Virus record (IMG/VR): IMGVR_UViG_2547132273_000019
DNA: 4,947 bases
Strand: one strand, 5' to 3'
DNA from: a virus
Lineage: Duplodnaviria > Heunggongvirae > Uroviricota > Caudoviricetes
The notes beneath the pieces were generated by a model, which saw only the letters and a program-made list of their open reading frames with translations, made no database searches and was not told where the DNA came from. The position numbers and the translations under genes are program-made. How positions within the stretch are numbered: the first letter of the stretch is position 1; each line of letters opens with the position of its first letter. Shown in pieces: positions 173-4,947 of this stretch.

Positions 173-580
173 TTATCTTTTATTTGTCCGCTGACGGGCT
201 TTTAGTAATTCTTCAAAGAGTTTATTGAAGTTTTTTACTCGAGCTCGCATTTCGGCGAGCTGGGTATCCTGTTCTGATTCTGGCAGTGCATTAAACAGCT
301 CAAGGAGCTCTAGTTCTTTGGGGGATAAGGCAACTGGCTTCTCAACAGGTGGTGTTGGTTGCTTGTCTTCATCGCCAAATAGAATCCATGTTGGTGAGCA
401 TTGCAATACTTTGCTGAGGGCAAAAAGGTTCTTCCCTGTAGGTTCACTATCATCCCGTTCCCATTGTGATACAGACACATGGGAGATTTTCAGGGCTTTA
501 GCAAGAGACCTTTGGGTGTGTTTGAGGTTTTTCCGACGATACCTAATGCGTTCGCCGATAGTTAAATTTTTTGTTTCCAT
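173..580 (-). CDS. Phage repressor, XRE-family HTH (CI-like), short form without a LexA/S24-type autocleavage domain
   Basis: 135-aa ORF. N-terminal HTH signature TQRSLAKALKISHVSVSQWERDDSEPTGKNLFALSKVLQCSPTWILFG, then a Pro-rich linker and a ~45-aa helical tail. It is divergent from a cro-like gene and flanked on both sides by palindromic operators. ATG at 580-578, stop TAA at 175-173. Confidence 0.85.
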   Translation of the reverse strand: METKNLTIGERIRYRRKNLKHTQRSLAKALKISHVSVSQWERDDSEPTGKNLFALSKVLQCSPTWILFGDEDKQPTPPVEKPVALSPKELELLELFNALPESEQDTQLAEMRARVKNFNKLFEELLKARQRTNKR

Positions 581-2787: not shown

Positions 2788-2884
2788 TGTTAGGTATTTT
2801 AGACGTTACTAGATTAAAAAGCATTAGTTCAGGAGTGAATTGACATTCTCATTTTTCATGGCACAGGGTAGATCTGGCGTGGTT

Positions 2885-2908
2885 GTCCGCTTTGTGCCAA
2901 CAGCGGAC
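2885..2908. repeat. Inverted repeat GTCCGCT-N10-AGCGGAC (hairpin or protein-binding site), copy 1
   Basis: 7-bp perfect arms with a 10-nt spacer (ttgtgccaac). No U-tract follows, so it is not a canonical intrinsic terminator. The same arms and spacing recur at 4587-4609. Confidence 0.5.
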
Positions 2909-3074
2909 GTTACTAACGAAACTGTGAGTTAAAAACGGGAGCTGGTCACCTCCATCCCGCGAAATGGAATTCAAAAATGCCCTCATGTACGGTACTTCTA
3001 CTCTGATGTGAGCATTTTCGTGGATTTTTTCGAGCCACTCCAACGAATGATTACATTCAGTTTCGGGCACTAAA

Positions 3075-3090
3075 ACGTCATAACGTCATA
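3075..3090. repeat. Tandem direct repeat ACGTCATA x2
   Basis: Sequence aacgtcataacgtcata in the 540-bp spacer. Function unknown. Confidence 0.4.
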
Positions 3091-3276
3091 AATCCGCAAG
3101 TTGAGGAGTAGCGATCAGCCAATTGGTTAAAAAACAGCTTTAATTCCCTTTTTCAAGCAGGCTCCTTGTCGCACGTCTGGTGCATCCAATTCATTTCAGT
3201 TACCCTGATGCCATACTGGCACGGACTAGCTCTCTTAATTGGCGCTGGTTTGTTAACCTTGTCCGCTGTCGGGTCT

Positions 3277-3307
3277 TTGTAAGTTGTAATTCCTAAACTA
3301 GCATAAT
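3277..3307 (+). promoter_or_regulatory. Candidate own promoter for the RelA/SpoT-domain gene
   Basis: -35-like TTGTAA (3277-3282), about 19 nt spacer, -10-like CATAAT (3302-3307), then Shine-Dalgarno TAAGG (3315-3319) and ATG 3329. The spacer is slightly long; this is a weak call. Confidence 0.3.
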
Positions 3308-3328
3308 TTTATTATAAGGCCTCTTACT

Positions 3329-4354
3329 ATGCACATTTTATCTGTTTCAAAAAAGGAAGTTGGAAGAGCTGGGGATAGATTAGTTTCTCAGTTTGGTACA
3401 GGTGAAAAATATAAAGAGGAAGATGTACAAATTCTTCATGAGTGGAGGATGTTGCATTTATATCCTTTAAGTAAAATACAATTTTATATGGAAAGAGAGG
3501 CTATTTCCTTAAACAAAAATGCGTTACTATCCTCTAGAATTAAGAGGATGCCTTCCATTGTTACTAAGCTTTCTAGATTTCCTGATATGAAGTTAAATAA
3601 GATGCAGGATCTTGGTGGGTGCCGGGCTATTTTAAATAATCTGGATCAAGTGTATGATTTAGTTAATAAAATAAAATCATCTAAATTCTCACATGAACTA
3701 GTTAGAATGGATGATTACATGATAGACGTGAAAGATTCTGGTTATAGAAGCTTTCATATGGTCTATTCATTCCAAAATAAAAAATTTCCATCTTTAAATG
3801 GGTTGCGCATTGAAATGCAAATAAGAACAGCTATTCAACATAGCTGGGCTACAGCAGTTGAAATGGTTGGTTTGTTTCGAAAGGAATCATTGAAATCTGG
3901 TTTTGGTGATGCAAGATGGCTTAGGTTTTTTGAATTGGTATCAGAGCTTTTTTATAAACTTGAGTATGAAAAAGAACCATCTGGGAGTTATATAAAAATA
4001 TCAGAAGAATTAAGTTATTTATCCGTCGAGTTGAATGTTTTCGATATATTAGCTGCTTACAATGCCGTTGTTAGCCATATTGAGGGTAGCAAAAAATATG
4101 ATAAAGGACTTTGCATAATTGTTGTTGATACCATAAAGCGGAATATAAATATAAAGAGCTTCGAAAATCACAATCATGCGAAGGCGGCAGAAGCTTATGT
4201 CGAGTCTGAAAAATACTGCGCGGAAAATAAAGGCTGTGAAGTGGCTATGGTTTCTGTTAGTTCAATTAGTGAATTAAAAAATGCATATCCTGCTTACTTT
4301 TTAGATACGAAAACTTTTTTAAATTATCTCAGTAGGTATGTTTTTATAAAATAA
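3329..4354 (+). CDS. RelA/SpoT-domain nucleotide pyrophosphokinase (small alarmone synthetase-like) with a C-terminal extension; candidate toxSAS or fused toxin-antitoxin (CapRel-like) defence protein
   Basis: 341 aa. Synthetase-fold motifs in order: RIKRMPSIVTKLSR (R-x-K-x3-S-I-x2-K), QDLGGCRAIL, DDYMIDVKDSGYRSFHMVY (compare NGYQSIHTVV in RelA) and EMQIRTAIQHSWA (compare EIQIRT...H). About 115-150 residues follow the SAS core. Hand counts of sample 60-nt lines give about 23-30% G+C inside the gene against about 53% in the replication gene. Confidence 0.85.
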   Translation: MHILSVSKKEVGRAGDRLVSQFGTGEKYKEEDVQILHEWRMLHLYPLSKIQFYMEREAISLNKNALLSSRIKRMPSIVTKLSRFPDMKLNKMQDLGGCRAILNNLDQVYDLVNKIKSSKFSHELVRMDDYMIDVKDSGYRSFHMVYSFQNKKFPSLNGLRIEMQIRTAIQHSWATAVEMVGLFRKESLKSGFGDARWLRFFELVSELFYKLEYEKEPSGSYIKISEELSYLSVELNVFDILAAYNAVVSHIEGSKKYDKGLCIIVVDTIKRNINIKSFENHNHAKAAEAYVESEKYCAENKGCEVAMVSVSSISELKNAYPAYFLDTKTFLNYLSRYVFIK

Positions 4355-4586
4355 AAAATGTTTTCTGGAGTGGTCTGAATTCTACTAACTTAGTTTTTTC
4401 AGACCGCTTCTGACCACAATGGCCTGTGAGGTTCTGCTGCTAGTCAACATAAAATAACAAAGCCGGCAGGTGGTGGTTGTTGTAAAGTTATTCAATGACA
4501 TTCATGGAGGCTTAAGCGAATTATTTGTCCCTGGTCGGTATGGTGGCAACAGCTTGTTGCGAGAATTTGGCTAATTTGGACTGACT

Positions 4587-4609
4587 TCCGCTCCTTGCTC
4601 AAAGCGGAC
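4587..4609. repeat. Inverted repeat TCCGCT-N10-AGCGGAC, copy 2
   Basis: 6-bp arms plus a trailing C, 10-nt spacer (ccttgctcaa). Same arm sequence and spacing as 2885-2908. The two copies bracket the RelA/SpoT-domain gene. Confidence 0.5.
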
Positions 4610-4721
4610 TAGAAGGTTAGCTTGTGTCGGACTTTGCGTATTAAAAGAAGTGCTGGTGGTGACTAGTGGTTGAGCCCCATTTCCACAGAAAAAATCAGAG
4701 AAACTATACCCAATAGTTGTA

Positions 4722-4750
4722 TTGAATCACTGACGAGACAGCCTCATATT
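4722..4750 (+). promoter_or_regulatory. Candidate sigma70-like promoter upstream of the small ORF
   Basis: -35 TTGAAT (4722-4727), 17-nt spacer, -10 CATATT (4745-4750). A strong Shine-Dalgarno AGGAGG (4776-4781) follows. Confidence 0.3.
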
Positions 4751-4787
4751 CATCAGGACTGGTGTACGTCCAATACAGGAGGTTGTG

Positions 4788-4877
4788 GTGCTGGTTCTCA
4801 AATGTGCGCTGGCTATTACGGCTGTAATGGCGATTTATTGTCTTGCTATTGTTCTTATGGATCGCCTTTCTGACTGA
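4788..4877 (+). CDS. Candidate small hydrophobic membrane peptide (29 aa)
   Basis: GTG at 4788 lies 6 nt after AGGAGG (4776-4781). Hand translation gives (M)LVLKCALAITAVMAIYCLAIVLMDRLSD, a single predicted transmembrane helix with a charged tail; stop TGA at 4875-4877. It overlaps the track's 67-aa ORF (4670-4873) in another frame; which frame is expressed is unresolved. Confidence 0.3.
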   Translation: MLVLKCALAITAVMAIYCLAIVLMDRLSD

Positions 4878-4947
4878 TTTCATATTGGCGAGGTAAAGGT
4901 AGTTAAGTAGAATGGCTGCGGGTGCTTGAGGCTATCTGCCTCGGGCA

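Follow-up and report, generated by a model that had tools for sequence, protein, structure and literature searches.

A probable 29-codon gene for a membrane micro-protein directly ahead of the hokD promoter in Escherichia prophages

Short type I toxins are tiny proteins with one hydrophobic helix each: TisB has 29 residues, IbsC 19, ShoB 26, DinQ 27 and ZorO 29. Another small gene, XECs145, was reported as a novel gene of Escherichia coli O157:H7 Sakai with support from RIBOseq (Sakai positions 1550761-1550922; Hücker et al. 2017, PMC5597208), and the supplements of that paper predict an inner-membrane location for its product. So far, XECs145 and the corresponding RefSeq protein WP_001278450 are an item of a high-throughput list. 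Here we analyse positions 4670-4877 of a 4,947-nucleotide (nt) stretch of a Caudoviricetes record (IMG/VR IMGVR_UViG_2547132273_000019); this whole stretch is called the window below. A 29-codon frame in this region, which we call F1, is very probably a real and mostly unannotated gene for a tiny single-helix membrane protein, as judged from comparative sequence analysis. The region sits directly 5' of the promoter of the toxin gene hokD. A preliminary description of this DNA, made from its letters, missed that setting because the hokD gene itself lies outside the window.

The preliminary description pointed to two overlapping small open reading frames (ORFs), and both exist in the sequence. 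GTG 4788 opens a frame of 29 codons that ends with TGA at 4877 and translates as (M)LVLKCALAITAVMAIYCLAIVLMDRLSD, while TTG 4670 opens a frame of 67 codons in another register. The elements of the region are as follows.

4722-4750, plus strand: putative sigma-70-type promoter of F1, with -35 TTGAAT at 4722-4727, a 17-nt spacer and -10 CATATT at 4745-4750

4777-4782, plus strand: Shine-Dalgarno sequence AGGAGG, 5 nt ahead of GTG 4788

4788-4877, plus strand: F1, 29 codons, predicted single-helix membrane micro-protein MLVLKCALAITAVMAIYCLAIVLMDRLSD, GTG start, TGA stop at 4875-4877

4670-4873, plus strand: 67-codon Gly/Cys-rich ORF, judged not to be a gene, TTG start, TGA stop at 4871-4873

The strong Shine-Dalgarno sequence had been placed at 4776-4781 with a spacer of 6 nt; AGGAGG is indeed present, and only its position and its spacer needed correction. 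The automatic ORF list starts the F1 frame one codon earlier, at GTG 4785 (30 amino acids, 4785-4877). We rejected this start, since relatives have GTC, GCC, TAT, ATC or GTT at that place and GTG 4788 is invariant. The description of the product as a hydrophobic peptide with one helix is well founded: the best 19-residue Kyte-Doolittle window scores 2.58 and the grand average of hydropathy (GRAVY) is 1.74. Judged from the promoter position, transcription would start near 4757, which would give a 5' untranslated region (UTR) of about 30 nt. The predicted mRNA fold is unremarkable (z-score -0.99), and its centroid leaves the Shine-Dalgarno sequence unpaired. An AGGAGG followed by ATG or GTG 4-9 nt further on occurs twice in the window against 0.29 expected, and 10 of 200 shuffles reach two. 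Therefore, the sequence alone is only suggestive, and it is the comparative data that decide.

About 200 related prophage loci were compared. One sample was drawn with a degenerate pattern for F1 codons 14-25 and gave 120 IMG/VR loci; a second one, independent of the ORF, was drawn with the hokD promoter/leader sequence and also gave 120 loci, 89 of them new. The GTG start, the length of 29 codons and the stop are intact in about 120 of the 124 F1 copies of the first sample. In the pooled hok-anchored set, F1 is intact in all 118 loci that align without gaps, and this set includes seven intact F1 loci that the ORF pattern had missed owing to amino-acid changes. F1 stands behind at least four unrelated upstream sequences: type A (that of the window), type B, type C (with a further small ORF and a hairpin ahead of F1) and the context found in E. 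albertii. The spacer that defines the first of these types is given here.

4610-4721, plus strand: 'type A' non-coding spacer from the hairpin at 4586-4609 to the F1 promoter, 89-99% identical in many genomes

This spacer carries indels of 1 nt and 19 nt, and unrelated sequence takes its place in types B, C and D. Upstream homology among F1 loci starts at the -35 region in types A to C and near the -10 box in E. albertii. Types A, B and C all have TTGAAT or TTGAAG, despite the divergence of the spacer between the hexamers and of the upstream sequence. The -10 box CATATT is invariant in all F1 loci except BL21, where it is deleted, and two decayed loci (L069 and L103). GGAG is kept in all backgrounds (as AGGAGG, AGGAGA or GGGAGG), and so is a short ACGTC motif, while the bases between them diverge. 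Hence the promoter that had been proposed at 4722-4750 stands up well, its hexamers being kept together with the Shine-Dalgarno sequence, the GTG start and the frame; and the combination of a hydrophobic peptide with a strong Shine-Dalgarno sequence, put forward before as a candidate, proves to be a real one, its signals being conserved as a unit. Two F1 loci in the first sample are frameshifted. A 2-nt deletion is seen directly in L103, and we infer that L069 is the second locus. In both L069 and L103 the -10 box now reads TGTATT and the Shine-Dalgarno sequence AGAAAG; if the assignment of L069 is right, three signals decayed together in both copies, as is expected of a unit whose parts work together.

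Two variants of this region deserve mention in their own right. In BL21 (L004, NZ_CP060121, positions 1204-1683), a deletion fuses the 3' part of the DUF977 gene to the F1 5' UTR. There is no cargo, hairpin or promoter in this strain, the Shine-Dalgarno sequence and ORF of F1 are kept, and the shortened DUF977 coding sequence (CDS) ends inside the peptide-gene region. In about 14 loci (e.g. L025, L026 and L042), TCTCAT replaces the -35 TTGAAT in the relatives of window 4720-4738, and this makes a perfect 8-bp inverted repeat, TCTCATCA-A-TGATGAGA, which covers the -35 box and spacer and is operator-like.

The preliminary description had proposed a comparison of substitution patterns in both frames, and its outcome favours the 29-codon frame. 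Variable sites amount to 23 of 30 in the last 30 nt of the 5' UTR, 29 of 90 in the F1 ORF and 12 of 24 in the 3' flank. The F1 frame holds 15 synonymous and 17 non-synonymous variants, distributed over the three codon positions as 9, 7 and 16; none creates a stop, and the ratio of non-synonymous to synonymous variation per site (pN/pS) is 0.39, or 0.47 in the codons that were not used for ascertainment. The 29-codon frame is thus under constraint, whereas pN/pS in the 67-codon frame is 1.03-1.08. The third frame has three stop-creating variants.

The 67-codon frame had been compared to glycine-rich bacteriocin-like peptides, and it might be asked whether this Gly/Cys/Ser-rich ORF, rather than F1, is the real product. 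It is open in the window and in the type A relatives, and many deposited genomes call it a hypothetical protein (a cluster of 29 members). Upstream of its TTG there is GGTGGTGA at 4655-4662. However, its start and its N-terminal 20-25 residues vary through frameshifting indels of 1 nt, reading LSPISTEKIRE… in the window and VLVVTGCCVPFLQNKITE… in relatives; its length ranges from 23 to 74 amino acids, and in BL21 and the loci of types B and C only 23-44 codons are left; and its product matches no family in Pfam, NCBIfam and PHROGs scans. The conserved F1 promoter falls inside this ORF. As for bacteriocin traits, neither a double-glycine leader in the ORF nor a transporter or immunity gene nearby was found (the neighbours are the RelA/SpoT gene, hokD and rem). 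The unconserved start and N-terminus, together with the absence of constraint in that frame, also in the comparison with the homologue described below, dispose of the bacteriocin-like peptide, to which we would give only a minimal chance. In our opinion, the 67-codon ORF is a by-product and no gene itself: it is what stays open in the +2 frame of a hydrophobic gene with balanced GC content. An antisense ORF of 59 amino acids (4704-4883) was considered too and rejected, since relatives have lost its ATG (TAT or CAC in place of CAT) and the homologue has a stop in this frame. The low ratio of non-synonymous to synonymous substitution rates (omega) in this antisense frame is the mirror effect to be expected from the sense frame.

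The homologue in question, which we call F2, was found in the hok-anchored sample. It is a peptide of 34 residues, MSDDISLAMEGALAVIAVVGVYCLVVFLMDRLGN (MSDD…YCLVVFLMDRLGN), with an ATG start and the Shine-Dalgarno sequence AAGGAGG, and it lies in the same position ahead of hokD in other prophages, including those of O157:H7. The NCBI Prokaryotic Genome Annotation Pipeline (PGAP) annotates it as WP_001278450.1. Over the 25 C-terminal codons, F1 and F2 are identical at 50 of 75 nt and at 13 of 25 residues, and seven of these 13 residues are encoded by different codons (TAT/TAC, TGT/TGC, CTT/CTG, CTT/TTG, CGC/CGA, CTT/CTA and GTA/GTT). The replacements are mostly conservative (I/V, A/G, A/V, M/V). 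The Nei-Gojobori omega between them is 0.28-0.41 in the 29-codon frame and 1.36 in the 67-codon frame. A column-shuffle BLOSUM test, which keeps nucleotide divergence and destroys codon structure, gives p = 0.0004-0.0012 in the 29-codon frame and 0.2-0.87 in the other two (0.46-0.87 in that of the 67-codon ORF). The conserved core is ALA(I/V)xAV(M/V)(A/G)(I/V)YCL(A/V)(I/V)(V/F)LMDRL, and the N-termini are unrelated.

The relation of the peptide gene to hokD needs to be considered with care. The full record that holds the window is NZ_CP029164 (locus L001), and a window position equals the L001 position minus 1641. The hok elements inside the window are two.

4885-4913, plus strand: hokD promoter, TTGGCG, 17 nt, TAGAAT, from a promoter scan at L001 6526-6554

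4920-4947, plus strand: start of the hok mRNA leader (28 nt, 5' stem-loop); mok/sok/hokD continue past the end of the window

The hokD promoter starts 8 nt past the peptide stop codon and just 5' of the match to the Rfam family sok/hok-leader (RF01794), which scores 117 bits at L001 6561-6735, equal to window 4920-5094. hokD is the next gene in L001; its start is about 140 nt past the window end (CDS L001 6730-6885). No terminator was found in the 8 nt between the F1 stop at 4877 and the hok -35 box at 4885; therefore, we would expect the F1 transcript to read into mok/hokD. At the 3' end of hokD and its terminator (L001 6894-6975, about window 5253-5334), there is a sub-threshold match to the Rfam family isrK, with 25.7 bits against a gathering score of 50; it probably reflects only the terminator hairpin.

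Given this proximity, one could argue that the region does not encode anything and is kept because it regulates hokD from upstream as DNA or RNA, be it as a second promoter, an UP-element zone or a 5' extension of the hok mRNA, the frame being incidental. Only 8 nt separate the end of the ORF from the hok -35 box, and the stretch from about -36 to -60 of the hok promoter coincides with the 3' end of the ORF; remnants of its last 6-13 codons stay joined to hokD in many loci; and the ORF region is less variable than its flanks. On the contrary, the constraint acts at the protein level: F1-F2 changes are mostly synonymous or conservative, with p≈0.001 in one frame only. F2-type loci have an insertion of about 30 nt with a palindrome between the stop and the hok promoter, and the C-terminus of the peptide is still conserved. 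F1 and F2 both have a strong Shine-Dalgarno sequence and a start codon despite unrelated 5' regions, and ribosome footprints have been reported on F2. We therefore regard a purely regulatory role of this DNA as very unlikely. The insertion contains a perfect 20-nt palindrome, GATATGGGAATTCCCATATC, just 5' of the hokD promoter; it is found in F2-type and in ORF-less loci (e.g. L139, L210, L211 and L136), is absent from the window type, and could be an operator or a hairpin of the read-through RNA.

Another way to look at the same proximity is that F1 and F2 are a third component of prophage hokD loci, co-transcribed with hok and acting as a membrane antidote, chaperone, gatekeeper or enhancer of Hok. 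Indeed, the physical linkage is near-absolute: a hok promoter or leader lies at most 80 nt downstream in 123 of 127 F1 loci, and hokD likewise follows every F2 locus that was found. The two genes are not separated by a terminator, and their products would both be single-pass membrane peptides. However, elements only 8 nt apart can stay linked without any functional reason. Some hokD loci have an intact leader but no peptide gene, or a truncated copy of it: in L213, L160 and L205, for instance, the gene is absent or its last 6-13 codons are fused elsewhere, and O157:H7 genomes match the window only from 4849 onward. Thus, the peptide gene travels with hokD, while hokD does not need the peptide gene. 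The complementarity of the peptide mRNA to the hok mRNA, or to the antisense of the hok leader, is no better than that of shuffles. No such gene is known from plasmid or other chromosomal hok loci, which also counts against a partner of Hok. We judge such a partnership to be unlikely indeed; if it were true, widespread type I loci would be three-part systems of peptide, toxin and antisense RNA that guard the border of a defence hotspot. As a separate observation, recombination has joined a different ORF of 57 to 66 codons to the six final codons of the peptide gene (…FMDHLSD*) in 15 loci (e.g. L213 and L126, plus strand). In this way, a remnant of this gene reaches new contexts along with the hokD module.

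The translation of the homologue is a matter of published data. The XECs145 sequence ends in the complete F2 peptide (supplements of PMC5597208). According to S2 Table of that paper, XECs145 in lysogeny broth (LB) at 37 °C has a transcriptome value of 79.1 reads per kilobase per million mapped reads (RPKM), a translatome value of 346.1, a ribosome coverage value of 4.35 and a coverage of 0.99. The corresponding figures are 121.3, 150.1, 1.14 and 0.84 in the brain-heart infusion (BHI) control, and 73.3, 1.1, 0.01 and 0.37 in BHI under cold/osmotic stress. Those supplements are the sole match for the F1/F2 peptides in the literature; full-text searches of main texts returned none. The XECs145 ORF call overlaps the end of a neighbouring small ORF, F3. 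F3 is a third small hydrophobic ORF (MTWPEAFTTVGIAMAVALVVYSICRWG, 27 amino acids) with a good Shine-Dalgarno sequence, located directly before hokD or before F1/F2; it is seen at L214 and L138 (minus strand), L013 (plus strand) and L139/L210 (minus strand), is mostly unannotated, and clusters with the C-terminus of 121-residue DUF551 proteins in Shigella and some E. coli.

These data bear on the suggestion, already made in the preliminary description, that the peptide is a type I toxin, i.e. a membrane-depolarising peptide next to hok/sok that is silenced by an antisense or trans-acting RNA. The size, the single hydrophobic helix and the polar tail do recall toxins of the TisB, Ibs, Ldr or Hok type, and the gene is prophage-borne and adjoins a bona fide type I system. 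A look for an antisense RNA had been proposed. A consensus scan of the minus strand over 4700-4950, which a weak promoter could escape, found no promoter-like site and no terminator, and Rfam recognizes sok and no other family. The short predicted 5' UTR with its unpaired Shine-Dalgarno sequence speaks against silencing as well, there is no match to a toxin family in Pfam, NCBIfam, PADLOC and PHROGs, and F2 is well translated in exponentially growing Sakai cells, which is atypical for a silenced toxin. With ribosomes covering F2 so densely, the Shine-Dalgarno sequence open and no antisense candidate in sight, we disfavour a type I toxin and consider it unlikely. A holin, which had also been suggested, does not fit: the lysis cassette essD-ydfR-rrrQ-rzpQ is about 4.3 kb downstream (the peptide ORF stops at L001 6518, and essD is at L001 11160-11375), and the peptide gene belongs to the early-right/nin region.

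Taken as a whole, we think it likely that F1 is a genuine gene for a membrane micro-protein, with its own promoter and with read-through to hokD. Transcription would be driven by its own sigma-70 promoter (4722-4750), translation would be initiated at the strong, unsequestered Shine-Dalgarno sequence, and the product would be a single-pass inner-membrane micro-protein of 29 residues. With regard to its function we can offer a tentative proposal, which may well turn out to be wrong: F1 could be a non-lethal 'moron' micro-protein, expressed in the lysogen, that acts in the membrane by helix-helix packing on a partner. The packing would involve the spacing of small residues (A-x-A-x-x-A-x-x-A/G) and the tail Y-C-L…L-M-D-R-L, and the target might be a host or phage membrane protein, e.g. 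in exclusion or modulation, rather than the peptide being a pore-forming toxin.

Several points speak against this interpretation. The selection statistics concern few sites (15 + 17 variants, and 25 codons aligned to F2), and the codon-position bias of F1 (9/7/16) is modest. Conservation of the 3' codons could partly reflect the upstream zone of the hokD promoter. The peptide gene is dispensable for hokD, many hokD loci having none or only its last 6-13 codons. The footprints concern F2 and not F1; since Sakai has several prophage copies, they may include multi-mapped reads, and they may also include reads from the neighbouring F3 or from spontaneously induced cells.

How common is the gene? 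Prevalence was counted in 5426 complete E. coli genomes. The F1 region (4745-4880, at least 80% covered) is present in 1664 of them (~31%), and no RefSeq feature lies under the F1 match in 30 of 30 sampled rows; in a few RefSeq genomes it is annotated as WP_000960667.1 (29 amino acids). The F2/F3 block is present in 673 genomes (~12% for the F2 form), with a median of two copies. Any part of 4360-4947 matches in 3523 genomes, mostly by the hok promoter/leader, and the flank adjacent to the RelA/SpoT gene in 42. Four phage records cover at least 80% of window 4700-4947, among them mEp460_ev081 and Tritos, in both of which the ORF is unannotated; the similarity of HannyBb and Evi extends over the wider window. 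The pattern YCL…LMDRL, scanned across 185,579 species representatives, was found only in E. albertii, E. ruysiae and one 'Collinsella' contig. An exhaustive phmmer search with the 30-residue peptide of the window against 1.84 billion representatives returned nine matches, all of them F1 variants with different called starts; phmmer alone fails to join F1 and F2, because the peptides are so short. The peptide gene is restricted to Escherichia. The 'Collinsella' sequence (L215, JAIHTM010000277.1, 'MAG: Collinsella sp.') is a 3.3-kb contig with the same module of peptide gene and hokD as Escherichia prophages, and its assignment to Collinsella is almost certainly due to contamination in binning. 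Scans of F1, F2, F3 and the 67-residue product against Pfam, NCBIfam, PHROGs and PADLOC gave nothing above noise, and F1 is outside every family of these four collections.

The left side of the peptide gene is of interest too, for the sequences found there change from prophage to prophage. The border is formed by a hairpin.

4586-4609, plus strand: hairpin TTCCGCT-N10-AGCGGAC (GTCCGCT in most loci), boundary between the variable cargo slot on its left and the conserved block, of which it forms the left end

The block of hairpin, peptide gene, hokD and rem is the fixed right border of a hypervariable cargo slot, which lies downstream of the DUF977/LygF gene (window 2788-4585; loci L003, L005 and L006-L158). 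All 38 distinct left junctions in 88 loci abut the hairpin position, in at least 30 cargo contexts, and it is at window 4584-4597 that the megablast alignments of about 1600 E. coli genomes set in. Changes in the arms of the hairpin are mostly G-U-compatible on the plus strand; no clean compensatory pairs occur among them. The cargo includes PDC-S33 (in the window), the PDC-S06 ABC-ATPase, an NsnA/PD-T4-2-like DUF262 protein, DUF4145, DUF5677 and an HAD-like protein, besides many further proteins without a PADLOC match. The slot resembles a hotspot of defence genes whose recombination boundary is fixed.

The cargo of the window is the RelA/SpoT-domain gene. Its protein matches the PADLOC single-gene candidate PDC-S33 over the full length (E = 5e-119), and Pfam finds in it only the RelA_SpoT domain (residues 69-175); it may be a single-gene defence of the toxic small alarmone synthetase type. 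The preliminary description had considered the small peptide as a partner of this protein, and an antitoxin of a toxSAS-like toxin would be one version of that idea. The small ORF is indeed downstream of the RelA/SpoT gene and on the same strand. However, the peptide gene occurs in 1664 genomes and the RelA/SpoT flank in only 42 of the same set; it follows many other cargo genes or, in BL21, the DUF977 gene directly; PDC-S33 is modelled as a single-gene system; and the two genes are about 430 nt apart, with a separate promoter in between. We see hardly any chance that the two proteins are partners. Directly after the RelA/SpoT stop, window 4359-4418 contains an imperfect 21-nt inverted repeat (76% complementary, arms 18 nt apart). 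It has no T-run, is specific to the 42 genomes with the RelA/SpoT cargo and may be the cargo's own 3' hairpin.

As to the wider setting, the window corresponds to the early-right region of an E. coli lambdoid prophage that is Qin-like, with the following genes.

173-580, minus strand: cI/DicA-like repressor

664-894: Cro/DicC

878-1399: YdaT

ending at 2345: O-like replication protein

2386-2787: DUF977/LygF

3329-4354, plus strand: RelA/SpoT-domain gene, low GC, 341 amino acids

About 590 nt after the RelA/SpoT-domain gene have no RefSeq annotation. In L001, hokD is followed by rem, ydfU and a Q-like antiterminator.

In our opinion, these results have some practical consequences. F1 in about 31% and F2 in another 12% or so of complete E. 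coli genomes constitute an annotation gap, F1 being almost never annotated, while the calls of the 67-residue ORF in older annotations should be retired. F1 is a well-supported addition to the small-protein catalogue of E. coli prophages; a small membrane peptide of a prophage is a familiar kind of object, and hence the addition is useful and not surprising. Since the peptide gene abuts the promoter of a classic type I toxin, the expected read-through may bear on the expression of prophage hok. Further, the block of hairpin, peptide gene and hokD can serve as an anchor for mining new defence genes.

It remains to compare F1 with known systems. With TisB, IbsC, ShoB, DinQ and ZorO it shares a similar length and one hydrophobic helix; it differs from them in that there is no homology, no long structured 5' UTR and no antisense candidate, and in that F2 is well translated. 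The toxins of the Hok/Gef family (PF01848), HokD included, resemble F1 as small prophage-borne single-pass membrane peptides with cysteines in or near the helix, encoded at the same locus and on the same strand. However, F1 is half as long and ends without a periplasmic C-terminal domain. It shows neither an overlapping frame of the mok kind nor a fold-back architecture of the mRNA nor a Sok-like antisense RNA, and comparison with the family profile PF01848 gives no Pfam or NCBIfam match at E ≤ 10.

AcrZ, MgtS, CydX and the moron or exclusion micro-proteins of phages are similar to F1 in having one transmembrane helix of about 30 residues with small-residue packing motifs. F1 has no homology to any of these proteins and is restricted to Escherichia prophages. 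A promoter of its own inside a prophage, independent of the early operon, is what defines a moron; F1 has a predicted one, with hexamers kept across unrelated upstream sequences, but it has no terminator of its own, and F2-type phages are without the promoter.

The closest known object is XECs145/WP_001278450.1 (F2). Like F1, it is located in a lambdoid prophage, with no other small gene between it and the hokD promoter, and it has a homologous helix and tail and a strong Shine-Dalgarno sequence, with the inner-membrane prediction made for F2. F2 differs by its ATG start and its acidic N-terminal extension MSDDISLAME; it is without its own promoter directly upstream, follows F3 and has the palindrome insert before the hok promoter. 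F1, on the other hand, has a GTG start, a lysine at position 5 and a predicted promoter of its own, and between its end and the hok -35 box there are 8 nt. F1 is a promoter-bearing paralogue of XECs145/WP_001278450.

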